Positions 21,901 through 61,630 of a stretch of DNA of 64,000 nt are shown here, piece by piece. The position numbers were made by a program, and so were the translations under genes. This DNA is from Amoebophrya sp. A120 (Eukaryota; Protista; Dinoflagellata), in the NCBI GenBank assembly GCA_905178155.1, contig CAJINV010000004.1, positions 5,330,258 through 5,394,257 on the forward strand, read 5' to 3'. Under the pieces are notes generated by a model that searched no databases, was not told the origin of the DNA, and worked only from the letters and a program-made list of their open reading frames with translations. Positions within the stretch are counted from its first letter, which is position 1. Each line of letters begins with the position of its first letter.

Positions 21901-24900
21901 CTCAGCGGGGGTAGTGAGGTCATGACGGTTTTTTTGTCTTCACTCCAAAAAACGACACGGCCTCCCTTCCCACCATGCCGCCGTGAGTAATGTTATGCAC
22001 GACGGCACGGCGGTCGCTAAAAATCTCGAGCCAGCGGCGGCCTCCATTTGGTTTCGACATGAAAAACCTTCCCCGCATGCTATGGCCCCGCCAGGGTCGG
22101 CCCCTTGGGAGCCCCAAATCGGGCCCATAGCGTGCGGATTGGCTTTTTGCTTTTGGCGGACTTTGTTTTTTTTTTGTTTTTTTTGTTTTTTTTTTGTTTT
22201 TTTTGTTTTTTTTTTTTTTGTTTTTTTTGGGCGCATCATTCATCGCAACTCTAATCACATAGTCAATCTTCTTTTTTTGTTTNNNNNNNNNNNNNNNNNN
22301 NNNNNNNNNNNNNNNNNNNNNNNNNNNNNNNNNNNNNNNNNNNNNNNNGGCCCATAGCACGCGGATTGGCTTTTTGCTTTTGGCGGACTTTGGTTTTTTG
22401 TTTTTTTTTGGAAAAATGCCGCATCTTCTGGCCTTAAGTCCGCCTCTGAAATAGCGGATTTTGGTGGCGTCTTTTGCGGGGCCCGACTGTGGGCCAAAAT
22501 GGGGCCCATACCATGCGGATTTGCTGTTTTTTTCGGATTGTTGCTTTTCGGGCGCCCCTTTCTGGGCGCCCCAAACCGCCAGAAGCTAAGGCGGTGGGCG
22601 CCTCAGAAGGGCGCCCCTTTTGCCGGCTCCCCTGCGTCGTTTTATCAAGCGGGAATCGATAGTTTTCGACCGGGCTTGTTTGACGGCAAAGCCCCGGCAG
22701 CTTGATAATTGAAAATTTTTTATGTCAATAAACACTTTCGCCCGCTTGAAAACTGCCGGCCGTTTTGCGCACTGCATGGCAAAAAAAACAGCCAGGGTAG
22801 AACGTTCGTGACCTCACTACATACAAATTTTCACCATTAAAAATCTGTGATTTTTATACATGAAACAGGGAGAGTGTTCCCATTTTTGGGAAGCTTTGCA
22901 ATACAAATGCTTCCACGTTCTGGGGTCGTCGTGGGGGCACTTTTCAATATGATAAGCTCAGCCCCGTCGCGCTGGAGCCGGTCGCCGCCTGGATGCGCAT
23001 CGACTTAAACGTGCGGTTGCCCACCTGATCGGGAAAGGGGACCCAGGTGCCGCCATATTGACTGTTGACGTCCGCTATCAACTGCAAATATCTCTGGGTC
23101 TGGAAACTTGTGATGCAAGTCAGGGAGCAATGCGCGCACTGTAATGCACTGCCAAGCATGAACAGTTTTTCCGTGGTTCTGAGTTACGTATTCCGCATGA
23201 GAAACTTTGTCTTTGCATGACAGGCAAGTGGAGCTCTTTGCGGCCACGCAATACAGAGCTCAGAGTCATGTCAGACAAGCATGACAAACCTTGCATCCTT
23301 CCAGACATCCAGGGGTATTTGCAATGCCTATCCGCCGGCAGGGTAAAGGCGAAGTCCGTCTCGCCGTCAAAAAATACTTCCGCGCCAGAGAGTATCGCGA
23401 GAAAAAACTAAATCGGTCTCAACTTGTAATGCGCAACTTCCTTGAGACAGTTTTTTGTCATGCTGGAGATGGAAGAATAAAGCAGTCTTTCCTATGTGTT
23501 TTCTCTCGCTGTCTGAACGCATCACAAGTTTTTTCTTTCTTCCGACTTCGCAAATTTCTTTTGCTGGATCTGCACCATCAAAGGTTTGAGACTCTGAGAC
23601 ATCAACAGTTTTTCGTACGATAAAGAGGCTGTTTGCGGGCGGCGTGCTCCCGACGGTGGGGTCGCGCGCAAAAATCTCGAACCCGGCCACTGCCTGCTCG
23701 AACAGCGGCCAGTTTTCCTCCGTCGCGGCCGTGAAGTCCACCTGCCAAAAAGGGAGGACGCCGGTGGCCGCGCCAACGTCGCTGTGACAGCAGAGTCGCG
23801 CGGTGTCGGCCACTGCAGTCGCGTAGTCGGTCTCGATGCCGGCGGGGGTGCGGTCGGGGAATATCACACAGAAAAAAGCTGGCAGGGCACATTTGTAATG
23901 CAAAAATAAATACACAAAAAAACCTGTATTGCATATCGAACGCCGCATGCTATGGGGCCACCCATGACCAGTTTTTGTGTGTATTTATTTTTGCATTACA
24001 AATATGCCCTGCCAGCTTTTTTCTGTGTGATAGGGAAAATCCGGTTCCAAACGTTGCCCGCCCCGCACACATATCAAATGCAAAACTGTCTGGGTCTGGA
24101 CACTTGTGATGCTGTGTGGCGTATCATGGGGACGCCACAAGTGCTGGCTCAGCATGACAAGTTTCTGTAGCTTCTAGGTGTTGCCTACTCTGCATGACAG
24201 ACCGCGTTTCTGCACGACAGAAAAGTGGGGCCCTTGGGTAACGTGCATGACAGATTTGAGAGTCATGCCAGACAAGCATGACAAACATGCACTCTTCCAG
24301 ACCCAGACATTTCTGCATTTGATAGTACACCCTCCGCGCCGCCCGCGCAGTCCCCAGTAGCCAAGTCGGCCGGCCCCTGGGACGCCGTGAACTGCGCACT
24401 GTCCAGGGGCACCAGCGCGCCCAGGTATGAGAATGCACAAGAACTCGTGGTCGCCCTCATTTGAAGGTGGGCATGAAGAACAGCAACACAAGCAACAGCA
24501 GAAAAGGGGCTCCTTCGTCCGCATGCTAGCCAAAATCTGCACGCGGATTCTAGTACTGTTTGAGATTCCAAAATTTTGTATCATGCAAGTTTGGTGCTTA
24601 CGAGCAAGAAGGTGTGAGCTCCACTTCCAGGCTGCAGCGTTTGGTGCTTTGCATTACAACTGAGGGCGAGGAGGTGAACTTCGAGTTGTGCACTCTCATA
24701 CCACAGCGGGAAAACGCGGAAGGTCGGCTCCGCCGCAGTAGCAGAGCCGCAGGTGGTTGTTGTCTGGGCTGATCGCGTCGCACCGGGAACGAAACCCCTT
24801 TTGGTACGCTCCCAGCGGAAACAAGAGGCAAGACCAGTCCCCGCCGGTGCCGCCGACCTCCGCCGCAAACAGCGGAGCGAAGGAGAAGTGGTCGGCCGCG

Positions 24901-27900
24901 TCCTGCGTTCGTGTGTCGCACTATTGAAAGGAAAAGCCCCCCCTTTCCATATTGAAACAGTGTGCTTCCGAAGATTTGCGCTGCTGCTTTGACGTCACAG
25001 ATCGCATTTGTCTCGCAAGAAGACAAGGGCAAAAGCTTCCGCCCCATTATGGACGCGATTCGTCATGCTGCTGGGCCTAAAGGGGAGCCGTTTGCAATGC
25101 TGAACAACTAGACCCATGCGCCCTTACCTAGCCTGGGGATCTGGCCGCATTGCCTTCCTGCAGTACAAAGCTGATTTGTGTACACAAATCCAGCATCAGA
25201 AGTTCCGTTTTGATATGGGGAGGGGGGATTTTTCCTTTCGATACGCACCCGGGCGTGGCCACCTGCACCGTGTCCATCTTCGCCAAGTAGCCCGGCGTTG
25301 CGCTCGTCACCGTGGTCCGCTCACTGTTGCAGGGCAGCGGGTGCGCGAGGCCGAGGCATTTCTCGTCGCAACTCTGGCCGGCCTGGTCAGTCTTATAAAA
25401 CCCCGACAGATATCAAGTGTAAAAATGTCTGGGTCTGGAAGAGTGCCGACTTTTGTCATGCTGTTTTTGCATGACACAGAAGGTCTGTCATGGAAGCCCT
25501 AGCATGACAGATTTCGAGAATCTTCCGCAAACGCAATGCCCAATCCGCATGACAAATCCCCTAGTATGGTGACAGGAGAAGATGGGCACCTTTTGCTGCC
25601 TGTGCACGAGAGATTTTTGTGTGTTGTGCAATGCGCATCACAAGTTGCATCCTTCCAGACCCAGACATTTTTGCATTTGATAACAGATCCGGCGTGGTGG
25701 TGGTCGTCGTCGTCGTGGTCGGCTCCGCCCCGGCGTAAAAGAAAATCCCGGACAGCACCAGTGGGTTGGTCCCGTCGGTGTTCTGGATTTTCATGGAGGT
25801 GAACCGCCGGCGGACGGGCACGTAGACCCCGTTAAACAGGATCGGGTCCGGGGGGAGCTCGAGTCCGGACGGGGTAGCCTCGTCGTCGAAGAAGAGCTCG
25901 CTGGTCCCGATGCTAGCGGTGGCAGCCTCCGCGTGGGGCCAAAACTCAAAGCCCTCCACGTAGCCCGTGCGGAAGTTCGCGAACTCGGGCGCCGTGGTAT
26001 CCTGATTAAAAACGTCCCCACACCAGAGTCAAGATGGGAAGTTTTTTTTTTGCTAGACAAATCAACTGGCTTTCGTTGTTTGGCATGACAAGTTTGTCCT
26101 CGTAGTGTCATCCTGTTTAGCTACCTATGAAGCATCACAGATCTAGCATAGCATCCTGATCCTAGCATCACAAATTCCAAAACACGAATAGAAAACGCTT
26201 GTGCTTCTCACGGAACTCCGCATGGGAAACTTTCTTGGCATGCAGAATTGCATGACAACTATGGGGTGGGGATGTTTTTACACGGGATGCGTGGCCCAGC
26301 TCGGCGTCGCGGGCGGATTCCATTCCACCCGCCACCAGGAGGGGGGCCCCGCCTGCCCGCCGAAAATCAGGGACCGCAGCGCCGCCACGCCTTGGTTCAC
26401 CGGGTCCCGAAACCCGAACGGGCGGTTACGGAAATTGTTCGGGTCCGCAAAGTCCGCGAATTCGCCCAGCTGGGTGGCCTGGAACCGCGCGGGGTTGATG
26501 GGAAGCAGGAGCTGCCCCGTCAGGTTGCGCTCGTACGCCCCGCCGCAGAAGCAGAGCCGCTTGTGGTTCTGCGCGTCCGGGGGCCGGGCGGCGCACAGCG
26601 ACCGGTAGCCCACCGCGTAGGTGTCGCTGTTGAACTGCACGCACCGCAGGTCCGGGAGGAGCGCAGTGTCGTTCTCGAAGTAGGGCGCCGCGCCGTCGGC
26701 CCGGTCGGCGCTGACGTACTCGCCGCACGAAGCCCCGGCGTATTACAATCAAAAATGCCCCCGCCCCGGAATTTGCAGAAGTTTGTCATGCAAAGTTTCC
26801 AAATGAAAGCTTTTTGTGTTGCGCGAAAGGATTGCGAGCCTTTCTGATGCAGAATCTAGGTGCCGTACGCAAGGTGTCTTGTGCATAACAGATCCGGCTG
26901 CTGATGGGCACCTTCGCAACACAAATTTGAGCGATTCAGCATGGAAAACTCGTGATGCTGAGATATGCAAGACGGGGAATGTTTCCATTGGAAAGGTTTG
27001 CAATACAAATGCTGCCAGGCTGGGGGTGGGGGCATTTTTCGTTGTAATACGGTGCTCGCGAAATTTGCGTTGTCCGTGATGTTTCCCGTCGTTTCTATCA
27101 ACTGCAAAAATGTCTGGGTCTGGAAGAATGCGCGATTTGTCATGCTGCTTTTCCATGACCCATGAGGTCTGGAATGAAGGACCTAGCATGACAGATTCTG
27201 CGAGACCTTTCTAATGCCTATCCTGCATGAGAAACTACCTCCAGACTTGGTCAAAACTGGACGGCTTTTGGCAATCATGCAACACAGATTTTTGCATGCT
27301 ATAGATTTAGCATGACAAGTTGCAATCTTCCAGACCCAGACATTTTTACATGTGATAGTTTCTTCGCTGTTGCAAGGCTGCGACGTCTCCGCGCACGTCT
27401 CGTCGCAGCTCTGGCCCGGCAGTCCCAGCCGGTAGCTGGGGGTGTCCTTGTCCGGTTTGGGGGGTTCTTCCTCATTCGGCTCGGCGCCCGCGTAAAACTG
27501 GATGCCGCAAAACCGCATCATCTCGCCGTTGCGGTTGTTTTGTATCTTCATCGACTGGAAGCGACGGTGCACGCGGACCCAGACCGGCGCGAAGTGGCCC
27601 GCCGGGTCGTCGGGGGGGAGCTGGCCCGCGGGCAGGTGGTCGTCGTCGAAAAAGAGATCGTATGCATTGCAAACATCCCTGGAAATGTCTGGAGCATGAT
27701 TGCAACTTGTGATGCCGCTTTTGCATTCTACAAAAATCTGTATTGCTTGAGCATCAAGCAGAGACGTCGAGTTTCTGCCACGCGGAGGTGGGGGCAACAT
27801 TTCTCATGCGGTATATGCATTAGGAACCCTCAACAAACTCTGTGATGCGAGGGCATGCATCATAGGCATCACAGTTCATGCAAAACGTGCATGACAGGTC

Positions 27901-30900
27901 TTCTTGCAATCTTCCAGAGAACCCAGACTACATATTAGCAATTGATAGGTCGGCTTCCTGCAGGGAAGAGGATCCCACGGTGGCGTCGCACCAGATCTCG
28001 AAGCCCTCCACATACTCGGACAGAAAGGGATTGTCCATCCACGGGTGCGGGGGCACCGGCGTCCACGCCGGGGGGTTCGCCGACACAGCGAACTCCACGC
28101 GCCACCACGCGCCGCCGCCCGCCCCCAGCACCACGCACAGCTGCGCGCCGAGGGCGTCGTTGTGGCCCACGGGGAGCCGCTGGTCAAGGGCGCGGTTCTG
28201 GAAGTTGTTGCCGGTGCCCGTGTCGTCAAACGTCGTTCCAACGAACCGGCTATCAAATGTAAAAGTGTCTGGGTCTGGAAGAATGCAAAACTTGTAATGC
28301 TGAACTCGCATACTCCCAAACTCTGTAATGCGTGTTGCGGAATAGCGGCGCTTCTGTATCATGCAAAAACGCAGTTTCTCATGCGTGTTACACGCCACAG
28401 GACCGTTCAAGAATCTGTCATGCTAGGCTGCTTACTCTAGTCATTTTTTCATTCGTGTATTAGCATGACAAGTTTCCAGACCCAGACATTTTTACAGTTG
28501 ATACCGGCTGCCCGGGATGGGGTTCAGCGTTTTCCCGTCGAACACGCGCGTGTGCGTATCCTGAGTAAAAACGTACCCACACCAGAGCTATAATGCAGAT
28601 TTGCAAAGACAGGAAGACTTGTAATGCGCATCCCCATGAGAGCCATTTCCAATCGTGTTTTGGAGTCTGTGATGCTGTGAACAGGATGAGCAGATGAATC
28701 TGTGATGCGGCTGCACTTGCTAACCAGCACTACACTGCAGAGTGCAATTTGTCATGCGTGACTCCCAAAACTCCTAGGTTTGTGTTGCAAAATCCCCATC
28801 CTGACTCTTGTGTGGGGACGTTTTTACTCAGGATAGTGCGGGCCCCCGCAGTAGCACACGCGGCGGTGCGCGTGCAGGTGAGAACGAGCACTGCAGCTCG
28901 AGTGCACGCCGGCCGCAGTGGCGGTGCTGTTGTAGGAGTAGCAGTGGTAGGGCCGTCGACCGGACGAGCCTGCTTTCAAAATCTTGTTCAACAGCTTCGC
29001 CTGTTGTTCTTCTCGCGACGTCTCAATTTCTCTACTTTTTATCCCTGCCCCCTGACGAGAAGTAGCTGTAGTACCACTAGCACCCTCGCGTAGAAGTTCA
29101 CTGCCTGCCGCGGATGTAGTCCGGCCCGCTTCCGCGAGCGTCACCACCGGGTTATTCACGTCGTACGGCAACAGAAAGGGCGCGAAGTTCTCTTGCAAGT
29201 GCGCCTCCTGTGTGTCGATGCAGTCCACCCCCAGGTGATCGACCATGGCCGCAAAATCCGCCGCCTGACTGGTTTCCTCGCTGTTACACGGCAAGTTTTG
29301 CGCGCCGCAGGCTTCGTCGCAGCTCTGCAGCGGCTCGGCCAGAAACACGCGGTAACTGAACTCGGTGATGCGGAGCGGCGTCGGGTCCTTTGCCGCGTAG
29401 AAGTGGATGCCGCAAAAATCTATCTCGTCCGCGCCGTTTGTCGCCTGAATCGTCATACTGCCCTATCCTGAGAAAATACGTCCCCACACCGGATTGGTCA
29501 TACAAATGTGCAATGAGAGAAACATTTGTCATGCGCAGCACCATGAGAGGAATTTCCAATCGTGTTTCGTAATTTGTAATGCTGTAAACAGGATGTGAAA
29601 ATGACTTTCTTATGCGGCTTCTCTTGCCAATCACCACTACACTGCAGGGGGAAACTTGTCATGCACGGCTCCCAAAATTTGGAGATTTGTGTTGCTAGAT
29701 TCCCAACTTGACTCTGGTGTGGGGACGTTTTTACTCAGGATATGCCCCAGCTCCTTCTTGCCGCAAGCGGAACCCAGGTTGGCGACGTGGCCGCTCCACC
29801 CGCGCCGCCCCCCGGGAAGGCGGCCAGCAAATTTTTCTCGGTGAAGGCCGGCGCGTCGTCGAAAACGACGTCTGCCGTCTGCACGCCGTTCACATTCGTA
29901 CTCTCGCCGTCGGGAAAGATTTCGAACCCCGCCACGTGCCGCGCAAACAGCGTCCAATTGCCGTGGGTGCTGCCCTTCCAGGCCGCCCGCCAGTAGGCGT
30001 TTTCCACCGGCGGGCCCGCACTGCCCCCCGTGGTCTTCGAACACATGAGCGAGCCGGCGTCGAGCGCCGCTTTCGTATACGCGTCGTTTTTGATTTCCGT
30101 CGGGGCTCGGTTCGAAAAGGCCCGGTTCCACGCGTTGCTCGCCGGGCACACGCTGACGCCCGCGTCTTGGCAGTCTTCCGACCCGGCGTCTTCCGGTCCC
30201 TGGGTCGCGACAAACTGGCGCGCGGGGATTGGGAGCCGCAGCGCGTCGCCGACCCACCGCATGTGCTCGCCGCCGCAGTAGCAGACCCGGCGGGGCCCCA
30301 CCGAGATCTCCGACTTCGCACTGCAGATGGGCGACAGCCCCGCGGACTCCAGCGATTGAGGGAACCGAACGCACTTCCACGTCTGGTCCGCGCTGTTCTG
30401 CTCGGCATACGGCGCCAGTACGAAGTCCATGTCCGTGGTTGGGGCCGTCCCCACCACGGCGTCCTCCACGGAGCTGCAGGCGGAGGCATCGTGCAGCACC
30501 TGCTGAAAGGTCGCCTCCGCGGTGCTGGCGGTTTTCTCGCTGTTGCACGGAAGTCCGACGTCGTCGCACTTTTCGTCGCAGCTCTGGATCGACTCCGCCA
30601 GAAAGAAATTCGGTTTCCGCAGAAACGACGCCCGCCCGTCCGGGGGGACTACGTCGGAAATCCGAAGATTCAGTTTGCTCAGCCACGTGCCCCGCTCCCG
30701 CACCCCGAACACGACCGTGTTGATGCCGATTTGCGAGGCGGCGAAGGTATCGTCACCGTCGGACGAATTCTCCAGTTCGCTCGTCGACCAGCTATTTGTT
30801 GTCAAAATCGGCCTCCACGTATTCACATCCTCCACGTCCCCGTTCGGACCCACAATCTTGACGCAGAAACTATCGTCCGACGCGGTATCCCCGTCGCTGT

Positions 30901-33900
30901 TTTCGGTCGCGACACTCGCCGCCCGGGCGGTTCCGGTCAATTGCAGGTCCAGGGCCTCCTCCCGCACCAGCACGCGAAACCTGGCCTCGTTGCCCGTTAT
31001 GAAATGCAAAAGTGTCTGGGTCTGGAATGTGATGCTAACTTTGGACTCATCTAAAAAAATCTGTATTGCATGACCAGCAAGAGGAGTCAAATTTGGCTAC
31101 GCGGAGAGGGCATTTGTGATGCAGGATGCGCATCGATACGCGCTCAAAAAATCTGTGATGCTATGGCACACATCAGAGACATCATGGATCATGGAAAACG
31201 TGCATGACAAACCTCTTCCAGACCCAGACATTTCTGCATTTGATACCCGTGTTCATGGCGCAATCTTTGTCTTCAAAGTCGGCCAGAGGGTCGCCGTTGG
31301 CATCCAGGTTCCCCGTGCCCGTGTCCGGCACGTGTACGTACGGCGTGGTACCACCCTCCACGCCGATCTCCATGGTGCCAAACAGCTCGGCCTCGACCGC
31401 ACCGATCTCATCAACGGCCGGGGTCGTGGTGGTGCTCGTAGTGTATCGAATGTCAAAATGTCTGGGTCTGGAAGATTCCGGGATTTGTGATGCATATTTT
31501 GTATGATCCATGACTCATGTAATGCACGATCTAGCATCACAGATTTTTAGAGGGCTTCCTGATGCCTATTTCGCATGACAAATGCCCTCTCCGCGTAACA
31601 CAAACTGGACCCCTGTTGCTGGTCACGCAATACAGATTTTTTTGGGATCCAAAGACAGCATGACAGGTTGCAATTTTCCAGACCCAGACACTTTTACAAT
31701 CCATATAGTGCTGGGCCGCACCACGAAGTGCGCGTTCCCGCTGGTGATCCGGAGCTTGCTCAGCCAGGAACCCTTTTCGCGCACCCGCAGTATCGTGAGA
31801 AAAAAGTGTTACAGTTACACACTCTGATGGAAGACAAGCAAGACAGACAACCTCTGTCATGCAGGAAATGCTTGCCAGCCTGATTTCATTGGTGTTTTCC
31901 CTTATAGTCTGCGCATCACAGGTTTTCTTAGCGATGTCGAGCAACTTTGTGATGCAGAAACTCCAACAAATGTGTAACTGTAACACTTTTTTCCTGTGAT
32001 ACGCAGCTTCATCTGGTTAATCCCGTGCATGAACCCCTCGAAGGACGTATCGCTGTTCCCGCTGGAATATCAAATGCGAATATGTCTGGGTCCGGAAGAG
32101 TACAAGACTAGACTTCTCATGCAGGTTCGACATGACACATCACGTCTGGAATGCAGGATCTAGCACGACAGAATCTACTGTGAGATCTGTACCATGCCTA
32201 TCCTGCATGAGAGACTCACTCCCAACTTGGTCAAAAATGGACCGCTTTTAGTAACCATGCAACACAAGTTTTTGCATGATCCAGATTTAGCACGACAAGC
32301 TGCATTCTTCATCTTCCAGACCCAGACCTATTTGCAGCGCATATGGAATCCTTGTACTTGAGGCAGCTCTCGTGCCACGCGTCGGTCCGTTGCTTCGCCA
32401 TTTGCCATATGTATTGCAAAAATGTCTGGGTCTGGAAGGTTGGAACTTGTGATGCTAACTTTGGATTGAATTGAATTGAAGTAGCGACGCCCCCTGACGT
32501 GCCTCGGTAGCCGATCGCTCTACCAACCGGAGGTGCTAATTACATGCTTACTCCTTCCTTCGTCGAGCACCTTATTCGCCATACAAACTGGCTGGTGAGC
32601 AATTACCCGGACTGCCGGCCCAATTTGTGCCGGTTTTGGTGTTTTAGGGAGATACCCGCGACGCCCCCGCGGAGTTGGCGAAACCCTGATAGCGAGACGC
32701 AACCCTTGGCGGACCTGACCGACCTGAGACCATCCCCACCTTTGGATGTGTTGTCTCCCGCTTGTGCTGCGCGTTCTGCTTCGAGCCGGCCAGACCCTGT
32801 GCCCCGCGGGATCTCGGTTCGCACAATGTTGGTTAGTACGCATGGGATCCTGATCGCGGACGGCAAGTGTGTAGTTGGGGGGGCTACTTCTTTTCTTGAG
32901 GGGTCGAGGTAGTGGCATACTCGGCGCACTGCGTATTCGTAAACAAAAACAGGGGTGAGCTGTTGCAGTCCCGAGGTCCTGCTGCGCTCTGCTGCTCCCA
33001 ATGATCATTGCCATTTGGGGTCAGGCTACCTGTTTTGTAACCATCCACGCAGGTCGGCTCCTATTGGGTTCTTTTTCAAAAATAATTGCTTTGCCCAGCT
33101 TTCCGCTGCAGTGCCTACCTCTTGGGTCCTTAGTCCTACACGTTCTGGTCCAGGGTTGAGCAAGGCCCTGATGAAGGAAGTGATTCGGCGAAAAAACAGA
33201 TGGGACAAGCATCGCGCGCGCCCGAACGCTGATCATTTTGCCGCTGTTGTCTTCCTGACTGTGGGGCTTGGTCCTGAAATGCAAAACCGCATCACAACCC
33301 TTCAAACAGCACAATATTGCGCCATCTCCTAAATCTAGGAGGAAAACCGGCATGACACTGATGCCGTTTCGTTCTCATGGCATCGCAGAGCCGGCCCTTC
33401 TGCCGTGGCTCTTCGTTCTTTTTAATCATGATCGGTTCGCTTGCAGGCGTCTTTCGTCCCATTTGCTTTTAGACTTCCCGCACCCCCCCACCCTCAGGAA
33501 ACCCCCTGTCGGGGAGCAAAGACAAAAATGCGGAGTTGGACGAACATAGGGCCATGTATATGCAGGGGGGGCTGCTACTTCTTTAAGGGGGGGGGATTGC
33601 TGCTGCTACGAACGGGGAGGGCGGGCTTTGGTGTTCCTACTGCCGCGAAGTTTGCTAGTGCTCTTGCCGCCCCTGCCACCGTTTGCTGCGTGGCGCCAGT
33701 TTCAGCTCCTGCTCGGATTGCTACTACTGCCGCCCGGATAGGCACTAATACTAGTGCCACTACTACTGCTGCTGCTTCCCGCACCTGCTGCACCATGTTG
33801 ATTTTTGTCACTATGCGGATTGCTACTACTAACGCCCACGCTGCACCGAATCGCCCTGCGCTTCTTCGCCGCTTGTTTCTTTTCTGCCTCCGCCACACGC

Positions 33901-46900: not shown

Positions 46901-49900
46901 GGTTCGAATACGGGGTGAGGCGGAGCGGCGTCGTGTCCGGACCAGCGTAGAAGTGGATCCCGCAAAAGGAAAAAAACGACGTAGGGGTCGTATCGCCGTC
47001 GCGCATCGCAAGCTTCATGCTCTTCCACTCTGTGCGGTTCGCGGGAAGCTCGACGTACGTGCCCGTCGAGGAAATGGAGGACCCCGCAATCGTGAAGGCA
47101 GCGGTGGGCTCATCGTCGAAGAACACTTCCAGGGTTGCTGGCAGGGCGTCGTACGCGTCGTCGTTGGCGAAGAGCTCGAAGCCGGCAACCGGCCGGGCGA
47201 ACGAGGTCCAGTTGCCGTTCGTGCTGCCCGTCCACTCGACGCGCCAGAAGGGAACGTCGGTGCTGGAGGCGGAGGTTTTGTAGCCGGTGTGGAAGCAGAC
47301 CAGGCTCCCCGCGTCTAAGTTCGCCTTGTCGTAGCTGTTTCCAATTTCCTCCGCCCCGCGGTTTGTGAACTCACGGTTGAAGACGTTGCTAGCCGGGCAC
47401 AGGTCCGCCCCGCTCAGCGACCCGTTCTCCAGACAGGCCACCTTCAAATCGTCCCGGTTGGTCCAGGTGCGCGCACTAAACTGCTCGGGGTCGACGGGAC
47501 TCCGCACCGCGTCTCCGATGAAGCGCATGTTGGCGCTGCCGCAGTAGCACACCCGCTGCAGGTCGGCCTGCGCGGGCGCCTTCGCGCCGCACACGGACCG
47601 CAGTCCCGCGGTCTGCAGCGCGGGCGAAAATTTGTAACACGCCCAGCTCTGGTCCGCGGGGTCTTGCGTCGCGTAGGGCGCGAGAACCTGGTTGCCTATG
47701 AACTGCAAAAGTATCGCACTCGTATAGATGCATTACAAATTTCCTCAGCATGAGAAATAGAATTTGTAATGCGGATTTCCCTTAACAAAAGGATTTGTAA
47801 TGCATGCTTGCAATATGAGTACGGAACTTTTGCACAGGATATTGCCGGCTCCGACCCCGGTCGTGATCACCGTCGCCTCCGCGACGGACGCGCACGTAGC
47901 CCCATGCATTGCAAAAGTATCGCACTCGTACTAATTGCAGTTATGCACGACAAATTTTCTTTCCAAGGTAAAACAGCATGACAAATTCAATTTTTCATGC
48001 TGAGAAAATTTGTATTTGTAATGCGATTTATACTAGTACGATGCTTTTGCAATGCATAAGCCCCCCCGGGCAGCAACAGTTCGAAGTTCGCCTGCTCCGC
48101 CGAGGTGGCCTGGTCGGCGTTGCAGGGCAACCCGAGGTTCGCGCACTTCTCGTCGCAGCTCTGCATGGCGTCCGCGAGAAAATACCCCGGTTTCCGGAGA
48201 AAATTCGCGGGGTTCGTCACCGTCGACAGCCGTAGCTTGCTCAGCCACGTGCCCCGCTCCCGTGCCCCGACGGTGACGACGTTGATGCCCGTCGGGCAGT
48301 CGATGGGCTGGTCAAAAACCTGGCTCTCGATCCACTGGTCGCTCCGCACCGAAGAGCTGGGGGCCAGCATCAGCTTCCGCGTCCCGAGGACGGTCCCGTC
48401 CCGGTCCGTCACCTTAAAGCAGAAACTGTCGTCGCTGCCGACGTCGCTATTGTTGTCGTCGGCGCGCATCGCGGCGAACAGCTTGACCTCCTCGGTGGCC
48501 CCGCTAGCCACCCGCACCACCATGCGGAACTGCGCCTGGTGCCCGGAACCGAAGCTGCAGTCGGCGTCCACGTTATCGTTTGCCTGGCTCGGGTCGTTGG
48601 GCACGGCGAGGTAGTCGGTCACGGTCCCGGCCTCCGTCAACGACGCCAGCGCCATTTCGCCGGATAGGTCGGCCTCGGGCGCGGTGATTTCCACAAGGGT
48701 CGTATCATATGGAAAAACGTCCCCACGCCATAATCAAATTGGGAACTTAGCGATACAAACAAACCCAGAGGTTTTGGGAGCCACGCATGACAAATTCCAG
48801 TCCGTATTGTAGTGCAGTTTAGCAAGTGCAGCCGCATCACAAATCCATCTGCTTATCCCGTTTACACCATTACAAATTCCAAAACGCGATTGGAAAGGCC
48901 TCTCACGGAGATGCGCATTACAAGTCTTCCTATAATCGAAAATCTGCATGACAACTATGGGGTGGGGACGTTTTTACTCAGGATAGGTCGCAGAGGTCGT
49001 GGTACTCGTGCTCGTCGTCGCCGGGCGCACCACGAAGTGCGCGTTGCCGCTCGCGATCGACAGCTTGCTGAGCTATTACAGTGAAAAATGCCCGCCATCC
49101 CTGACATTGCAAAAATTTGCGATGCGAAGTTTCCCAGTGAAAACTTTTTGTCATGCATGAAAGGAGTATGAATCTTTCTGATGCAGAGTCTAGGCGTGTA
49201 TCGCATCGCTTGCATGACAAGCGCCGCTCCTGCTGGGGTCTTTTGCAATACAAATTTTTGCTATTCACGATAAGAAACCTGTGATGCTGATAGATGCAAG
49301 AGGGCGAATGTTTCATTTGGGAAGGTTTGCAATACAAATGCTCCCAAGTTCGGGGGTGGGGGCATTTTTCATTGTAATACGAGCCAGGTGCCCTTCTCGC
49401 GGGCGCGCAGCGTCATCTGGTTCACCCCCGCTGTCAAATCGAACTCGCTGCTGGTCTGCGTGACGGTGCCCCCGGCTTCGACGGTCTGCAGGGTCATCGG
49501 CACCGTGGCCCAATCCGTAGAGCTGAAGGCCGGGTTCCCGTAGCCTTGCAGCTCCCACCACCGGAAACCAGACTGCGCGCCGGTCGGATCGGTGAACCCG
49601 ACACAGTAGCTGTCGTCTTTCCCGGTGTCCTCTTCCGCCCGAGCCTCTGCGTCGATGCTCACCTTCGCGTCGTTCTCCAGCTGGATCTCGAATACGGCCA
49701 GGTCGCCTATGACGTTCTCAAGTGTTACATTCTCAACTGTTGTGTGATTTGTCATGCAAAATCACAATCAGAATCGATGCGATCAAGCTGCTTAGCATGA
49801 CAAATTTGCAAAGGGCTAAACAGCACCGAAATCATCTGTGCGGCATTTGTATGTAATGCTAGAGGCGCAACCTCCCCCCTTTGACTGTTGCTATTCTTGC

Positions 49901-52576: not shown

Positions 52577-52610
52577 GCCGGCGGTCCTCCGCCGCCGCCG
52601 GCCGAAGCGG

Positions 52611-52760
52611 TATCCTCTGCAAAAGTATCGTACTCGTAGTAATTGCATTTATGCATTACAAATCTCTTCCTCAAAGTGAATCAGCATCACAAATTCAATT
52701 TGTAATGCTGGGGGAATTTGTAATGCAATTTATACTAGTACGATACTTTTGCATTGCATA
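52611..52760. mobile_element. Introner J3 (probable 5' UTR of gene 3)
   Basis: J TIR; DR AGCGG. Confidence 0.9.
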
Positions 52761-53758
52761 AGCGGAAGCTGCCACCAAAGGACCGATCGGGACCGAGTGG
52801 AGCAGCGACCGATCCCAAAATCGCACCGATCTAGGTCACCATTGTCCCAGGAAAGAACTTGTTCTACTTCGATATGATAATCTTAATCCGAAGATCATAA
52901 TTGGTCGATAGGTTCGGTGTAGTTTCGGTATTGGGTCGGTAAAAAAATTCATTTAGAACGTTATATTTCCATACACACAAAGATAGACCTTTCGCTCCAA
53001 GCAGAAGTTCCAGTTGCGAAGAAGGCTCGTAGTACTTGGATTCACGCAGAATTGCCTAGCTTGTTGTTCCAATTGAACAACATCGACTCAATCACAATCA
53101 CTCCGGGGACCACATTGAAAGTTCTTCTACCGAAAATTCGCATTATGGCAGGCGCCGATCCTCAAGAAGTAGTAGAAGCAATACAATGATCCAGCTACTT
53201 GTTACAACTTCGCTCAAGTTGTAGTCGGCTGGACACCTTTCTCTCGCGTAGTAACTTCCTTCGGCACGACAAGTGGTTCCTTCGGTAGTACAAGTGTGAT
53301 ATCATGGGACGACGATGGGGAACAATGGCAATTATGGGTCCGGTTTTCAACGGTGTAAGCAGTTCGTACCCAACCCACCATGACGCACGCCAGTCCTCGC
53401 GATTATGATGTCGTCCTTTAGTTGTACGTAGCTGTAAGTACCCATCAACATCTTCGATCATGATCAATATCATTGTACAATAGTACATTTCGTGGTTTCT
53501 TTGCTGGTCTTCTGGGTTTCTTCGAAACTACGGTCCAATCATCATACAAGGGATCAACATCTTACAGCCTTCTATGCCCATACGAAAGCTAGTATCTTCT
53601 TCCCACGACAGCAGCACCAATAGAGCTGCAATAGTGCGACTTTCAAATTGGACATTGCGTATCTATGTAAAAAATTCAGATGTGACGACTGCATCATGGT
53701 TGTTCCCTACGTTTTCTTTGAAAAACTCTTGTCAAAAAAAAACCTTCGAATAAGTCGA

Positions 53759-54012
53759 TATCAAATGCAAATATGTCTGGGTCTGGAAACTTGTGATGCT
53801 AAAATGTGGATGATGGAAGCAGTTCCGAATGCAACCTAGCATGAGAACTTGCCAGAACGCTGTCGCATAGGCAATCCGCATGCGAAACTGCGTGTTTGCA
53901 TGTACAAAAGAGGCTGCGGCTTTTGTTGGTTATGCAATACAGATTTCGTAAGTACGGAAAGCTGGCATTACAAGTTCCAACCTTCCAGACCCAGACATTT
54001 TTGCATTCGATA
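53759..54012. mobile_element. Introner A29 (UTR or intergenic)
   Basis: A TIR; DR GTCGA. Confidence 0.9.
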
Positions 54013-54253
54013 GTCGATGTGATCTTACCCAATCTGTCAGCCATGTTGCTATGCTTCAGATCATCGTGCTGATCATGTGCTCTAGTACTTCTACAACTCC
54101 AATACGATTGCCTTTTCTTCTTGTTCCTTAGATTTATATATTGACTTTGGTATCGACGCTCGTCCTAGCCGGACTCGGATTCAACTTCACTGCTGAAAAA
54201 AGCACAGCTAAGGTAGTGGTGGTGCCGTTTTCACACAGCAGGATAGTTATCTT

Positions 54254-57200
54254 CTATAGGAGCACATCCGGGTCGGCCCCCTGGTAGAAGTGAATTCCGC
54301 AAAACGACAAACTTGTCAGATCCTGAGTAAAAACGTACCCACACCAGAGTCAGGATGGGGATTTTGCAACACAAACCTAGGAGTTTTGTGAGTCACGCAT
54401 GACAAGTTGCGCTATGCAGTGTAGTGCAGGTTAGCAAGTACAGCCGCGTCACAGATTCATCTGCTCATCCTGTTCATAGCATCACAAATTCCAAAACACG
54501 ATTGGAAATGGCTCTCATGGGGATGCGCATTACAAGTCTGCCTGTCTTTGCAAATCTGCATTACAACTCTGGTGTGGGTACGTTTTTACTCAGGATATGT
54601 CACGCCAGGCGCCTCGATCTTGATCGACCGCATGCGCCGCTGCACCGGCACCCACGTCCCCGTGGGCTTGATCTCTATGCATTGCAAAAATGTCTGGGTC
54701 TTACTTGTCATGCTAAGTCTGGATAGTACAGAAATTTGTGTTGCATGATTACCAAAGAGCGTCCACGTTTGAACAAGTGTAGTGGCAGTTTGTCATGCGG
54801 GATAGATATGATAGAGACTTCGCAGAACCTGTCATGCTAGGTCCTGCATTGCAGACCTCTTGGGGCATACAAAATATGCATGACAAATTCGCACCCTTCC
54901 AGAGCAAGACATATTTGCATTTCATAATCTCCGCCGGGAGCTGAAACGTGACGTTCGGTTCGTCGTCAAAATAGACATTGGCGTTCGGCAGGTTCCTATC
55001 CAGGAATAAAAGTGTAGTAAAGTGAAAACTTGCCATGCAAAGCACAATAAATCAGTAGCTCGGTTGGATGATTATTACCATCACAAAGACATCAAATTCG
55101 TTTTGCGTTTAAAAAACAAAACCTGTCATGCGCAGGTAGTATCACTAAAAACACGTCGCACGAAACTAGCCCGTGATGCAGATCCAGCATGACAAGTGTG
55201 AATGTCTTGCGTCGTCCGCCGCACAAACCATACACAACTTACACAGTTTTTTTCTTGGATATTTTCCAAACGCTGTGTCGCCCTCGATGTCCGCGGAGAA
55301 AATTTCGAAGCCTTCAGCGTTATCCTTTGCAAAAGTATCGTAGTAAAAGTAATCGCAGTCACGCATGACAAAGTTCTTTTCTAATCTAAATCAGCATGAC
55401 AAACTCCATTTGTTTCTACTTGTCATGCTGAGCTGCCAACCTGTCTTGCAATCTTACTGCTAGTATGATACTTTTGCAAGGCATAAACGTACCGTCCGAA
55501 CATCTCGTAGATGTCGATTCCCACCGGCGTTTGCTCGTTTCTTTCCAAAAGCATACTACGGTCCTCATCATCTGCTGCTGTACTATCTCCTTTTTCTTCG
55601 TCTTCATCTTCTGTGACTGTGTTTCCCAAAAACGTGTCCGCCACTTTCCGCAAGAAGGTTGCTGCACTGCCGCTAGTACCAGAGCCGCTGCTGTTGCTTG
55701 TGTTGGAAGAAGTAGCTGCGAAGGCATTATTACCGCTAGTACTGCTGTTAGTGTTCGTGTTATTCCCCATCGGAAACTGGCTCTGCACTTGGTCTGAGAA
55801 CGCCGACAACTCGGCGCGCCAAAACGGCAGCAGAAGCGAGCTGTTGGAGTCGCCCGTGTGCATGCAAAATCGGTCCGTGGTGGGAATGTAGTCGTACTTG
55901 AAGATCTTGGATCCCTTTCGGTTATCAAAAGGGCGGTTAAAAACATTGCCCGCCCCGCACAAATACTTGAATCCGCCTATGCCGCTGCAGCCGGGCGCCC
56001 CGCTGCCGTCGAACTGCGTCGCGTTCCACGCGTTGTTTTTGGTTTCGATGAAATTCAACGGCAGGTCCGGGTCGGCGGAATTCTCGAACTTCCGCTGTTA
56101 TCAAATGCAAATATGTCTGGGTCTGGAAGAGTCCTGCTGTTTTTGCATGACACAGAAGGCCTGGCATGGAAGCTCTAGCGTCACAGGTTTCGAGAAGCTT
56201 CCGCAATGCCGAATCCGCATGACAAATCCCCCATTTTGGTGACAGAAAGTGGGCAGTTTTTGCTACCTATGCATAAGAGATCCTTCTGTGTTCTGGAATG
56301 CGCATCACAAGTTTGTATTATTCCAGACCCAGACATTTTTGCAGTGCATAGCTGTTTCCTTCCCCCGCAGAAGCACACCCGCCGCTGGGATTCCAAAGTC
56401 GGACGCGCGCTGCACTGGGACTTCAGCCCGTGGTCGTACATTTGCTTGTTATACCGCAAGCACTTCCAGCTGGTAGTCGCCGCCCCCTGGGTTTGTTCCT
56501 CGACGACAGGCGAGAAGAAACTGTCCTCCACCCCGACCTCCTCTGTGCTCTTGTCGCACGTCATATGAATGTGCACGACTCCCCCTCCCCCTCATTTGTC
56601 ATGCAAAATGCCCAATCCAGGCCGTGCCTCCTAGCACTGTTCGCATGATGACAAGTTCTGGCAGCCCAAATAGCACTACAATCTTGTGCAACTCTGTCAT
56701 GCAAAACCTGCATTCTGGCTGGCGCTTGTATTGCCGTTCATGCTACACAAATGAGGGGGAGGGGGAGTTGTGCTCTTGTCGCACGTCAAGCCCAGCGTGG
56801 CGAACTTCTCGGCCACCCGGGCCGTGTCCAAAGTCGTTTCGCTCGTTTCCTCGCTGTTGCTATCAAATGCAAGAAATATGTCTGGGTCTGGAAGGAAGCA
56901 AGGTTTGCCATGCACATTTTGCATGACTCCTGATGTCTGTGATGCATGCCCTAGCATCACAGATTTTGTGAGGGCTTCCTGAAGCCTATACCGCATCAGA
57001 ACTGTTTTTTTGCTGTTCATGCAATACAGATTCATTGTAGAATTCACATTCAGCATCACAGGCTGCATCCCTCCAGACCCAGACAACATATTTGCAATGC
57101 ATAGTTGCAGGGCAGCCCCAGCTCCGCGCACTTCTCGTCGCACGACTGCAGCGGGTCGGCCACGCAGTATCGCAAGAAAAAACTGTTTCACTGTAAATCT

Positions 57201-60200
57201 GTAATGCGGAAAATGCATCACTGAAGTGTTTGTCTTGCTATACATGCAAGACAAGTGACTTTTAGCGGTGTTCTCCCTTAGGAACCTCGCATGGCAAGTT
57301 TTCTTTGTAATGTGTAGCGAACTTGTAATGCAAAACTTGCAAAATCCTTACAGTGAAACAGTTTTTTCTGACGATACGTAGTACTGCCCCAAAACCGGCG
57401 GCGGCGCCTCGTACAGCCACAGGCCGCAGAAGCACATCTCCTTCTTCGCGTTCCCCGCCCCAAATTGCTGCAGTTGCACGGAGTCAATGTGCTGGTTGAC
57501 CGCGATCCAGGCGCCGCGCGCGGACACCAGCCCCGGAGTCTGCGTGCGACTGAGGAAAGAAGAAACAGCGGAGGAGGTGGTGCTGTTGACGTCCGTTTCG
57601 TAGTTTTCCTTGTAGTAACTGATCCGGGCGTTTTGCACCCCCGTGCGGCACTCGGCGGTCAGGTCCCCGTTCGCGAAGATTGAGAAGCCCGCGATGTACT
57701 TTTTCGTGTCCAAATCCACCCGCCAGTAGCTGTGACTCGCTTGCGCCGTCGCCGGGCCGGTCTTCGTGCAATACCCCACGTTCGCCAGCGTGACCCAACC
57801 GTAGCTGCTGAAGTCGTTCTCCGGCCGGAGGAGCACGTTGACCGCCCCGGTGGTCGGCGGCGGCGGGTCCACGCTCGCCTCCGGCCCGCTCTGCGCGACC
57901 GTCAGGAACTTCTCGTCGATTTTCGATCCGTGCCCCCCGGAAAGCCCGTCGGTGGAAGGCTTGCAGGAGCTCATGGCGTAATAGTCGAAGTCCGTCACGT
58001 TCCCGCTCGGCTCGCAGCCCTCCTGGAACAGCCAGCAGGCCGCCTTTTTGTGCTGCAAGAAAAACCCGCCGCAGGCTTCGGTCTCGGAGCACAAGTACCG
58101 GCACTCTTGCACGGAGTAAATCCTGTCGTTGTAAACCGCCCCAGTCGCGATCTGCTTGTCCGCGGCGTTGCCGCAGAAACCACGGCTCCACGTCCGCGGG
58201 CACGACGCCGGGCCCACGCGGGGCACGAAGCGCTTGCACTTCTGGTCCATCGTGTCCAAGTCGAAATATCCTGAGTAAAAACGTCCCCACCCCAGAGTCA
58301 AGATGGGGATTTTGCAACACAAACCTCGAAGTTTTGGCAGTCACGCATGACAAATTGCAGGCTGTATTATAGTTCAGTTTAACACGGGAACTCGCGTTAC
58401 AAATCCATCTGCTCATCCTGCTCACAGCATTACAAGTTCCAAAACACGATCGGAAATGCCTATTATGGGAATGCGCATTACAAGCGCTCTCGTGTTTGCA
58501 GATCTGCATGACAACTCTGGGGTGGGGACGTTTTTACACGGGATACGAAAAAGAGAAAACTCTTGGTCGACGGCGGGTCCTCCACGACGCAGTTGCTCTT
58601 CCCCTGGTAATACGTCAACTCCCCCGTTTCCGAGCTCCGCGCAAAGCCCTGGCACCGTCTTATGCAGGAAAATAAAGAACACTGTGTTTTTAGTGTAACT
58701 CCTTTATCAGAATCACAAATTTGTCACGCGGAGATAGTGCGTGAAACAAACGCCTATGCCAGTCTCTATCACGCACCATCTGCAACACAAAGTTCTTACA
58801 CTTTTATATACACAGTCTTCTTCTCACATACGCTTTTCCTCGTCCCCCGTCGCAAACCCGCGGCCGCGACAGTAGTTCTTCAGATCCGTCAACCTGACCG
58901 GGCGCTGGATTCGCGTGTCCAGGGGGTTCACCTGGCCCGTCTGCTTAAACAGGTCCTCTTCCGGGATGACTTGCGCCCCACTGGACGCGCAGTTCCCGAC
59001 GAACTTTGCGGGACAGACCTCGCCCCGGATCGTGCTGTGCAAGTAAAAAAACTGTGTTAGTGTAGATTTCTCTTGGTGTCAGCATGACAACCCTGTTTTG
59101 CATGGCACCAGAGAAATCCTGTCATGCACAGCTAGTGCAAGAAAAAACGTCCGAAGACAGGGTATCATGTCTGGTCACCAGCATGACAAGTGTATAGATC
59201 CTGTTTTGCATTTTCTGCATCAAAGAATCACACGACTTACACACTTTTTTTCCTGGATACGTGCACTGGTCGAGGTAGTAGCCCTCCATTTCCCCGGTGA
59301 GGTCCAAGTCCACCTCGCAGCCCGCGTATTTCAGCTCGCAAGCGCCGGTAGCTTTGGTGAGGAAGAAACTGTCGCAGTTGTCCGTCACGCTGCACAGAAA
59401 CCGACACTCTTCTAGGGATATCAAATGCACAAATGTCTGGGTCTGGATGAGTGTAGGAGTTTGTCATGCAACTTTTGGAAGACCCATTATGTCTGTGATG
59501 TATGCTCTAGCCTTACAGATTTTGCAAGGGCTTCCTCATGCCTATACCGTATGAGAAATTCCCCGTCCGCGTAGCAAAAACTGGACTCCTGCTGCTGCTT
59601 ATGCAATACAGATTTTTGTAGAATCCACAGGCAGCATCACAAGTTACAACCTTCCAGGCCCATACATATTTGCATTTGATAAGGGAGTAAGCCCGGTCGA
59701 AATACTTGGCGATCGTCATTTGCTCCTCGGTCTTGTTGACGGAAGCCGGCTATGCATTGCAGATATGGCTATGTCTGGAAATTAGGAACAAAAGTCGCAG
59801 GCAAAAAAAAACGCAGTTTTCCATCCGATTTGCGAATGAGAAAGTTTTCTGCAAACTTGTCACTGTCACATGCTTTCTTGCATAGGGAGGTGCTTTATTC
59901 CTTATGCACATTTTAGCATCACAAATTTATTCCAGACTCAAACATATTTGCATTTGATACCGGTACGCAGCCGCCGTCGATCGCCACCCGGCATTCCTTG
60001 ATCCGAGGAATGTTGAACGCGGACTTGCAGACGTTGAGACCCTATCGTATGTAAAAGTGTCTCGGTCTGGAAGAATGCAAGATTTGTCATGCGTATTTCT
60101 CATGACCCATGACGCCTGTAATGCATGAGCTAGCATCGCAGACTTTTAGAGGGCTTCCTGATGCACCTTCCGCATGAGAAATGCCCTGTCCGTGCAGCAC

Positions 60201-61607
60201 AAATTGCACCCCTCTTGCTGGTCATGCAACACAAATTTTTTTAGACTCCAAAAACTGCATGACAAATTGCATTCTTCCAGACCCAGACATTTTTGCATGT
60301 GATACATTCCTTTCCAAAGCGAATGTGGTCTTCAAGTCCTTGGGGACATTGGACAGGGGTTGCGTGCAGCCGGATCTGAAAAAACTGCAGGTGCGGTTAG
60401 AGCTGCCGTCGATGCTCTCAATGGTAAAGTGCGTACAGTTATCAACCGCAGAAATGTCTGGTGTTTTGTCTGGAAACAAGACCTTGGTACAGCACGGGGA
60501 AGAGAACGACTTGAACTTTCTGGAACAGCACGGGGAAGAGCAGAAATGTCTGGGTCTAGAAGAATGCAAGTTTGTCATGCTTTTCTCACATGGCTCTTAA
60601 ATTTGTCATGCACATTACCCAAGAGCCCCACTTTTCTGTCATGCAGAAACGCAGTTTGTCATGCAGAATAGGCAACAACTAGAAGCTCCGAAACTTGTCA
60701 TGCTGAGCCAGCACTTGTGGCCTCGCTCCTCATGATACGCCACCCAGCATCGCAAGTTTCCAGACATCCAGGGATATTCGCATTTGATAACAGTCCGGGG
60801 CGTAGTCCCCGGTTCGGCACTCTTCGTCGCAGGAGGGAATGGTGTTCGCGGAGCTGGCATCACAAGGAAAAATCCCCCCTCCCCATATTGCGCGTCACGT
60901 CTTCGAAAATTTGCGTTGCTGATTTGTGACCACAAATCGCGTCTGTCTTGCAAGAAGGCAACTCCACAGTCTCCGCCGCATTTTGCAGGCGTTTTGTCAT
61001 GCTGTTGGGCGTACAGTGCGGACGTTCTTCATGCTAAGCACCTATGCCACAGCCGCTCCGCTCAGGCTTGCTATGGGTCTGCAGTCCACCTCTCCAGCAA
61101 GACAAATCTGATTTGTGTGTGCAAATCCAGCATCAGAAACTTCGTTTCGATATGGGAGGGATGTTTTTTTCACTTTGATAACTGGGGGCTGTGGAATTCC
61201 CCAGCAGGAACTCGTCCCCGCAGAACCCCCCGCCCCACTCCGCGGGACAGACTATGCATTGCAAATATGTCTTGGTCTGGATGAGCGCGGACCTTGTCAT
61301 AATGTTTTTGCATGACCCAGAAGGAAGCTCCGGCACGCAAGCCGTCGCATCACAGGTTTTCGGGAGGTTTTCAAGCAGTTCGTATCTCGCGTGAGAAATC
61401 CCGGATTTTCCTGACGACGAGCACGCTACTTTTACTGTCCATGCATGACAGATTTTCGTCTGATCCGAAATGCGCAGCACGAGTTGCGTCCTTCCAGACC
61501 CAGACATATTTGCACTGGATACAGACCGGCACCCGCAGGTTCGCGATGCTCCCCGCCGTCGCGACAACGCGGCTCACCGTCGCAGCCCGGTAATCCAAGT
61601 GGACCAT
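54254..61607 (-). CDS. Gene 4: ~1011-aa shorter paralog (PAN-like repeats, Cys module, galactose-binding-like domain); 17 introner introns
   Basis: MVHLDYRAATVSR at 61607, ends FCGIHFYQGADPDVLL* at 54254. Removing 17 elements (+5 bp each) leaves 3036 nt (1012 codons). NDRIYSVQECRYLC and LLRPENDFSS match gene 1. Confidence 0.75.
54319..54597. mobile_element. Introner B8
   Basis: B TIR (left end GAT); DR TGTCA. Confidence 0.9.
54676..54926. mobile_element. Introner A30
   Basis: A TIR; DR ATCTC. Confidence 0.9.
54997..55261. mobile_element. Introner F4
   Basis: F TIR; DR GTTCC/TTTTC. Confidence 0.8.
55321..55485. mobile_element. Introner J4
   Basis: J TIR; DR AGCGT/AACGT. Confidence 0.85.
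56099..56350. mobile_element. Introner A31
   Basis: A TIR; DR GCTGT. Confidence 0.9.
56564..56783. mobile_element. Introner E6 (right end matches exon sequence)
   Basis: E TIR; DR CGTCA extended to 20 bp. Confidence 0.85.
56861..57103. mobile_element. Introner A32
   Basis: A TIR; DR GTTGC. Confidence 0.9.
57168..57376. mobile_element. Introner F5
   Basis: F TIR; DR CGCAG/CGTAG. Confidence 0.85.
58267..58545. mobile_element. Introner B9
   Basis: B TIR; DR CGAAA. Confidence 0.9.
58661..58830. mobile_element. Introner F6
   Basis: Degenerate F TIR; DR CGTCT/CGCTT. Confidence 0.75.
59036..59259. mobile_element. Introner F7
   Basis: F TIR (left end TGT); DR CGTGC. Confidence 0.85.
59419..59681. 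mobile_element. Introner A33
   Basis: A TIR; DR AGGGA. Confidence 0.9.
59751..59959. mobile_element. Introner A34
   Basis: Degenerate A TIR; DR CCGGC/CCGGT. Confidence 0.85.
60043..60304. mobile_element. Introner A35
   Basis: Close copy of A26; DR decayed (GACCC/CATTC). Confidence 0.85.
60440..60789. mobile_element. Introner A36
   Basis: A TIR with internal filler; DR ACAGT. Confidence 0.85.
60858..61180. mobile_element. Introner C5
   Basis: C TIR (left end CAT); DR GCTGG/ACTGG. Confidence 0.85.
61253..61521. mobile_element. Introner A37
   Basis: A TIR; DR CAGAC. Confidence 0.9.
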
Positions 61608-61630
61608 GGTCAGCGGAAGCGGAGGAGGAG

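Follow-up and report, generated by a model that had tools for sequence, protein, structure and literature searches.

What might remove tens of thousands of introns that lack GT-AG ends in an organism with no detectable U1? This question was posed in PMC7789003 for Amoebophrya A120, whose introners are described in the accessible text of that paper as about 240-260 nt long, divided into many families, devoid of GT-AG ends, bounded by an inverted repeat that starts with TAT, continues with seven looser bases and then AAA, and flanked by direct repeats (DRs) of 3-5 nt (5 bp in the legend of Fig. S19). The same text gives no clear splicing signature, splice sites that are variable relative to the hairpin and an unknown border, and its nine commonest non-canonical site pairs all have T at +2, the second intron base. 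U2, U4, U5, U6 and nearly all spliceosomal proteins are reported for A120, with no detectable U1, and no U11, U12, U4atac or U6atac was found (PMC7789003, accessible text). The parts of PMC12130899, PMC12005148 and PMC11282704 that are accessible add no register. Here we analyze a window of 64,000 nucleotides from Amoebophrya sp. A120 (assembly GCA_905178155.1, contig CAJINV010000004.1, forward-strand positions 5,330,258 to 5,394,257; coordinates below count from the first letter of the window), in which one fixed splice register, N+TAT...ATA+NNNN, fits all 11 intron junctions that can be read.

The stem-and-spacer code of Euglena is the closest mechanistic analogue of these introns. Like them, the non-conventional introns of Euglena lack GT-AG and have slidable DRs, paired ends and a 3' spacer longer than the 5' spacer (PMC12501133, PMC11282704, accessible text). 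Unlike the Euglena arrangement of N3-CDG...CH'G-N5-6 followed by a purine, a signature that the A120 elements do not show, the spacers here are 1 and 4 nt, the stem ends are UAU/AUA, exons may start without a purine and the 5' bases agree with those of the host canonical donor. The introns of Fritillaria borealis are likewise derived from miniature inverted-repeat transposable elements (MITEs) and bounded by terminal inverted repeats (TIRs) and target-site duplications, and an adapted U2 spliceosome is described for them in the available parts of PMC13326754 and PMC11282704; there, however, the preferred ends are AG-AC and AG-AT and U2AF paralogs are duplicated, whereas the present introns have N-T and random dinucleotides at their ends. 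Hemistasiid diplonemid introns also combine paired ends, absence of GT-AG and presence of a spliceosome, but their ends are G/C-rich, and no TAT/ATA transposon termini are described in the accessible text of PMC12621601. Compared with the A120 introners as published in text, the introns described here obey one register at all junctions read, their first base and last four bases are free, and positions +2, +3 and -7 are constrained; the published figures may already hint at this. A stated register was absent from the full-text literature searched, although figures, supplements and the subscription papers Roy 2023, Henriet 2019 and Huff 2016 could contain one.

Results

The elements of the window, which are absent from transcript contigs, are miniature inverted-repeat transposons bearing target duplications of 5 bp. 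They are already published as Amoebophrya A120 introners, and the splice register is the new, RNA-supported part. A de novo inverted-repeat scan combined with a profile search gave 80 curated TAT...ATA elements, 55 of them inside 24067-60309, and the detector returned 0 elements in three Markov-resampled windows; 12505, 15612 and 62043 are not among the curated elements, and the doubtful element 63428-63520 is excluded from the count of 390 copies used below. Most are 145-350 bp long, and a single copy reaches 1171 bp. Each is flanked by a 5-bp DR, whose two copies are mismatched in 24 of 80 elements, in agreement with the approximately 24 given by a preliminary description of this DNA. The elements share with MITEs and other TIR DNA transposons the TIR and the 5-bp duplication, and with A120 introners an end profile of TAT, seven looser bases and at least AAA, DRs of the 3-5-nt class that overlap the exon/intron borders (here 5 bp, split 4+1 by the cut), repeated similar families, and removal from transcripts mostly without GT-AG, the runs being only guessed to be RNA.

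When the two DR copies of an element differ, a contig that skips the element reveals which copy stays exonic. The element-bearing open reading frames (ORFs) of the window are all on the minus strand, and the RNA evidence consists of contigs from runs X1-X3, which stem from one sample of guessed RNA status and cover minus-strand genes. These contigs precisely skip elements, and DNA-like X5 contigs cross the exon-element borders at the same sites; of the 13 reads from the raw-read run X8 and the 2 from X9, all lie on element sequence or align only in part. Eleven of the 24 mismatched elements are readable, six from contig joints and five from aligned contig pieces. The joints listed are 15 of 39 in the region of host genes B and C (described below), and elements 43400, 49074, 50825, 51974 and 60858 are not among them. 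In what follows, all introns are on the minus strand and braces enclose the numbers of upstream DR bases that the transcript may have kept. The joints place the cut after base 2, 3 or 4 in the intron 54993..55262 (element 54997-55261; {2,3,4}; joint 54992>55263, both=2, X1 and X2), after base 4 or 5 in 55317..55486 (element 55321-55485; {4,5}; joint 55315>55486, both=1), and after base 3 or 4 in 60039..60305 (element 60043-60304; {3,4}; joint 60038>60306, both=1). The upstream copy supplies base 3 in 57164..57377 (element 57168-57376; {3,4,5}; joint 57161>57376, both=3), bases 2-3 in 58657..58831 (element 58661-58830, which is degenerate and has a minimum-energy fold without the terminal stem; {3,4,5}; joint 58655>58831, both=2), and base 1 in 59747..59960 (element 59751-59959; {1-5}; joint 59745>59960, both=4). 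Among the aligned pieces, it supplies base 3 in 46065..46331 (element 46069-46330; {3,4,5}), where X1 pieces join 46063 to 46331, base 4 in 27657..27948 (element 27661-27947; {4,5}), where pieces join 27654 to 27947 in X1 and X3, base 2 in 26737..27050 (element 26741-27049; {2-5}), where pieces end at 26735 in X1 and X2, and bases 1-2 in 24422..24701 (element 24426-24700; {2-5}), where a piece starts at 24701 with 0 other letters. In 23389..23623 (element 23393-23622; {0-4}), base 5 is that of the downstream copy; X1, X2 and X3 all have pieces that start at 23624, and the 58-nt exon length fits.

The sole value common to all 11 sets is a cut after transcript DR base 4, so the intron is N+TAT...ATA+NNNN. 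That one fixed register fits every readable junction is therefore supported by the contigs, with a probability of 0.0046 for a register shared by chance if independent uniform registers are assumed. The preliminary description had placed the cut after DR base 4 from paralog residues and proposed to read RNA junctions at the mismatched DRs; the 11 junctions bear out that cut. Both orientations of family 0 are represented among the informative junctions, so the register follows the transcript. The T at +2 in all of the published A120 site pairs fits this register. Of the elements named in the preliminary description, A8 (24072) and A24 (43400) were mapped by their peptides and A1 is probably 75, and the register at these three is not fixed by RNA: the intron 24068..24325 (element 24072-24324) is removed, leaving a 130-nt stretch of two exons and one DR copy, and for 43396..43654 (element 43400-43653; not among the joints listed) the register is predicted from sequence and the ORF is open at it. 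DNA-only checks outside the window agree. In two plus-strand genes, stop codons exclude a cut after base 5 (locus L028) and one before base 2 (L051); at L052, the GKS of a Rab P-loop requires base 3 from the upstream copy. A codon-likelihood test of the register at mismatched DRs had no power, and a mismatched element in an RPB1 gene (L055:4517-4756) lies inside a canonical GT-AG intron and is uninformative for the register.

The outside sample was obtained by a TIR pattern scan, which selects for the exact TIR pattern, and comprises 139 loci, all belonging to a single further assembly; its copies reach 96% identity to elements of the window. Of 403 unique elements, 311 were kept and 92 were dropped for a weak strand call or fewer than three DR matches. 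Strands were called by a codon model trained on those loci alone, which was correct for 64 of 65 confident window calls and gave concordant calls for 143 of 144 neighbours; Pfam matches in the predicted frame were found in 13 of 100 outside exons tested, six on the plus and seven on the minus strand. The DR length of 5 bp is evident from 370 outside copies found without using the repeat, since 281 have a perfect 5-mer, 43 have 2-mers, and lengths of 3-4 and 6-9 account for at most 6 each. Clustering grouped 316 of the 391 window and outside copies, with 16 families of at least four members, and 15 of the 16 occur in both orientations relative to the gene (45/66 in family 0). For the RPB1 exon at L055, most of the top named matches are from dinoflagellates and Perkinsus at 43-48% identity, and one fungal-labelled record is at 38%; the best match of all is at 73%, and Amoebophrya is not among the named ones. 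At this locus, invariant RPB1 sequence is broken up by elements (1978-2239), an element of 977 bp occurs, and 4517-4756 is the copy nested in the canonical GT-AG intron.

In the common register, +2 T faces -5 A in the stem and +4 T faces -7 A. Among 390 copies, +2 T is changed in 3, +3 A in 2 and -7 A in 3, as against 16 changes at +4 T, 13 at -5 A and 7 at -6 T; +2 T, +3 A and -7 A rarely change, and the facing bases -5 A and +4 T change more. At +4, T>C accounts for 11 of the 16 changes and breaks the stem pair with -7 A. The DR copies differ at 6.6% of sites, from which we estimate approximately 3-4% drift per free copy; +4 and -5 fit this drift, and +2, +3 and -7 are well below it (P<=0.003 at 3%). 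An element is symmetric at its ends when it inserts, so any later difference between the 5' and 3' arms should reflect splicing. The arm-by-position interaction, with position 1 kept in the 5' arm and position 3 in the 3' arm, has p=0.00015, or p=0.0009 without the search-pattern copies and 0.0002 when the detector profile ignores TAT. The two Ts of one arm show opposite signs, which rules out strand mutation bias, and the persistence of +2 and -7 while their facing bases drift means that base identity matters, not hairpin pairing alone. Canonical donors of the host have GTAT in three of four homology-defined RPB1 introns and A at +3 in 16 of 26 predicted GT-AG introns (26 kept out of 150, without RNA verification and with at least three mis-called elements in the set). 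Host donors start GTA, often GTAT, so positions +2 to +4 of an ordinary donor are provided by the end of the TIR. Further inside the TIR, at -12, -23 and -26, the 3' arm stays closer to the family consensus than the 5' arm does (26 positions compared; p 0.004-0.02 without correction), an asymmetry that could reflect strand mutation bias or subfamily structure.

The terminal bases appear to be free. In the window, +1 is G in 33, A in 15, C in 16 and T in 16 of 80 copies (p=0.025 relative to the 30% G of flanking exons). Of the 311 outside copies, 99 have G (31.8%) against 29.7% exon G (p=0.23) and a codon-phase expectation of 96.4, and pooling the two samples gives p=0.053. An excess of G at +1 is at most small and is not established. 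The preliminary description had reported these window counts nearly as we find them and had proposed a relaxed, G-enriched donor; it compared G with A, C and T rather than with G-rich exons, and the enrichment falls to exon background outside, which by the description's own criterion counts against it. The conserved +2/+3 of that donor is nevertheless upheld by the RNA contigs and the 311 copies, the near-invariant TA having two window exceptions (25998 and 56564). The lack of a terminal AG was also described correctly, with AG in 4 of 80 window copies (6.2 expected) and 24 of 311 outside (24.2 expected), as was the tolerance of the opposite end, where TCT, CAT, AAT, GAT and TGT are seen. By the standards of a canonical U2-type intron, G at +1 and AG occur at exon background and U is present at +2 in 387 of 390 copies. 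GT..AG is present at the common register in 1 of 80 window and 7 of 311 outside copies, and a GT-AG reading at another register was rejected, being possible in only 4 of 80 and 18 of 311.

Several other candidate signals were discarded. A gain of +1 G in older, mismatched copies (13/23 versus 19/56 in the window) is not repeated outside (21/77 versus 78/234), and a covariation of +1 with -1 (raw p=0.0003) is accounted for by exon dinucleotide bias (p=0.07; phase-aware 0.25-0.29). There is no purine rule at the first exon base, with 189 purines in 311 outside copies. The donor consensus of U12-type introns is RTATCCTT. The elements resemble such introns in starting N-TATC in 260 of 390 copies and in their relaxed terminal dinucleotides, but TATCC starts just 65 of 390, +1 is not limited to purines, and no U11, U12, U4atac or U6atac was found in A120 (PMC7789003, accessible text).

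Once its elements are taken out, host gene A (15919..32539, minus strand) has open frames of 1922 codons at 32539-20178, from which 21 elements are gone, and of 334 codons at 19235-15919, from which 9 are gone; gene B (37946..52830, minus strand) becomes a single 2782-codon frame once 25 elements are removed, and gene C (54257..61924, minus strand) a single 1022-codon frame once 18 are removed. The frames were computed by deleting every element with one DR copy. Spliced contigs cover genes A and B, and gene C has at least 15 joints at a depth of one contig per run. The regions 1-2000, 15919-32539, 37946-52830 and 54257-61924 are tandem paralogs encoding large cysteine-rich repeat proteins, with just weak PAN_4 and F5/F8-like matches under the Pfam cut-offs. 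Between the two frames of gene A, 19226-20320 is densely packed with short repeats, inverted and tandem, that have no relation to the TAT elements, and so is 9500-10100. Several long ORFs at 2724-7726 (minus strand) are free of elements and have no Pfam matches; some of their words may resemble a retroelement integrase. An SPFH/Band 7 exon (E 2.6e-12) occupies 63459-63872 (minus strand), with elements 62694 and 62988 immediately downstream on the same strand.

Three individual copies are unusual. Element 25998-26289 (intron 25994..26290, minus strand) is the sole window copy with C instead of T at +2; an X1 contig reaches 43 nt into it and an X3 contig ends at the junction with 46 letters left. 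The unbroken X1 read-in suggests retention, a single case that, as an anecdote, fits a donor role for the 5' end. At 56544-56788, the adjacent exon is identical to the outermost 15 nt of an element's 5' arm, possibly by conversion or slippage. The intron of this element (56560..56784, minus strand; G at +3, outer 5' arm identical to exon sequence as a 20-bp direct repeat; joint 56543>56769, both=20) is precisely removed all the same and begins GT at the common register. The 1171-bp element (21784-22954) has a perfect 5-bp repeat and surrounds an assembly gap, and since a loose end of X1 falls on the exon beyond it, long copies are spliced as well.

Discussion

How might an intron be removed with neither of its terminal dinucleotides specified? 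We tentatively favor, at somewhat short of an even chance, a relaxed major spliceosome with N-UA as its donor, in which distance sets the 3' cut, probably six bases beyond a branch A at -7. The terminal stem would bring the intron ends together in place of the U1/U2AF bridge and would then fray, the +2 U would be held by U6 as in ordinary introns, and the -7 A would be the branch nucleotide. The P complex of yeast has three relevant pairings: G(-1) to G(+1), U(+2) to A51 of U6, and A(-2) to the branch A (10.1101/212811, accessible text). Given these pairings, G(+1) and G(-1) may have been relaxed together, and a relaxed spliceosome that gives up G(+1) and AG but retains U(+2) and a branch A would be coherent. 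Since the messenger RNA takes DR bases 1-4 from one copy and only base 5 from the second, any insertion in either orientation restores the coding sequence, which would explain the tolerance of thousands of copies. It is more doubtful that the spliceosome here works altogether without terminal guanines or AG and needs only U-A at +2/+3 and an A seven from the end, both provided by the outer three bases of the TIR, with the 3' site measured from the branch A.

Several points weigh against the relaxed spliceosome. A stable stem, as predicted by folding, would hide the donor and the branch site, and a six-base gap from branch to junction is short compared with the seven ordered nucleotides of the yeast structure (10.1101/212811, accessible text), although very short distances are reported for Yarrowia (PMC4022394, accessible text). 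For the putative branch at -7, the test alone is post hoc and weakens in stricter subsets (12 versus 3, p=0.035, or 0.11 against a 57:43 strand baseline; within families 9/285 versus 3/287, p=0.088), three copies have G at -7, and U is not enriched two bases upstream of the A, at -9. Nor is a fixed -7 A seen in canonical introns, where it occurs in 10 of the 26 predicted and 2 of the 4 RPB1 introns. The register itself derives from single-sample contigs of minus-strand genes, which hide minor registers, and base 4 is fixed by only two junctions (55321 and 27661) and base 5 by three (54997, 60043 and 23393).

The same register would be produced by two other routes. It is unlikely that, as the preliminary description proposed, a spliceosome with the N-UA donor measures the 3' cut 4 nt from the base of the TIR stem, with the branch elsewhere. 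The junction does lie at a constant distance from the stem as well, the ends are paired in the folds of most copies, and at several inner positions the 3' arm deviates less than the 5' arm (5.3% versus 7.0%). However, the frame is kept where outer pairs are broken (+4 T>C in 11 copies, -5 A>C/T in 6), and 58661 is removed despite a minimum-energy fold without the terminal stem. Pairing alone also predicts that A>G, which leaves a wobble, is tolerated more than T>C, and the reverse holds at +4/-7; with -7 A kept while its partner +4 T drifts, a ruler starting at the branch A does at least as well. Structure-guided cleavage and ligation outside the spliceosome, as proposed for Euglena and with spacers of 1 and 4 nt, is about as unlikely. 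It would account for the absence of +1 G, AG and any +1/-1 covariation beyond exon dinucleotide bias, and for U1 not being found in A120 (PMC7789003, accessible text). The available parts of the Euglena papers point the same way: the N3-CDG/CH'G-N5-6 spacers led their authors to suggest non-spliceosomal factors (PMC12501133), and excised euglenid introns are circles without lariats (PMC11282704). Yet the constrained +2 U and +3 A are exactly those of the GTA donors of the host, the constrained 3' base is an A, and the first exon base follows no purine rule.

That the register varies between introns or molecules, the agreement being a chance or assembly effect or the contigs being intron-less DNA, is highly improbable. 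The Fig. 3 legend of PMC7789003 does call the splice sites variable relative to the hairpin, and X1-X3 are contigs of guessed RNA from one sample in which 13 of the 24 mismatched elements are unread. Against this stand the probability of 0.0046 for a register shared by chance, the single contig per run at each joint among those listed, and the X5 contigs that cross borders where X1-X3 skip elements; moreover, slidable repeats explain an apparent variability of mapping.

The rule rests on 11 junctions from one sample, and the elements themselves were known. A fixed N+TAT...ATA+NNNN turns borders described as variable or unknown into one annotatable rule, with three named bases: +2 U, +3 A and -7 A. 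If removal is non-spliceosomal, Amoebophrya would possess a second stem-and-spacer splicing code beside that of Euglena. If it is spliceosomal, these introns would be a natural case of 3' splice-site choice without junction sequence, and if the spliceosome indeed needs only the U-A and the A of the TIR ends, every transposon insertion, into any sequence and in either orientation, would be a perfect intron.

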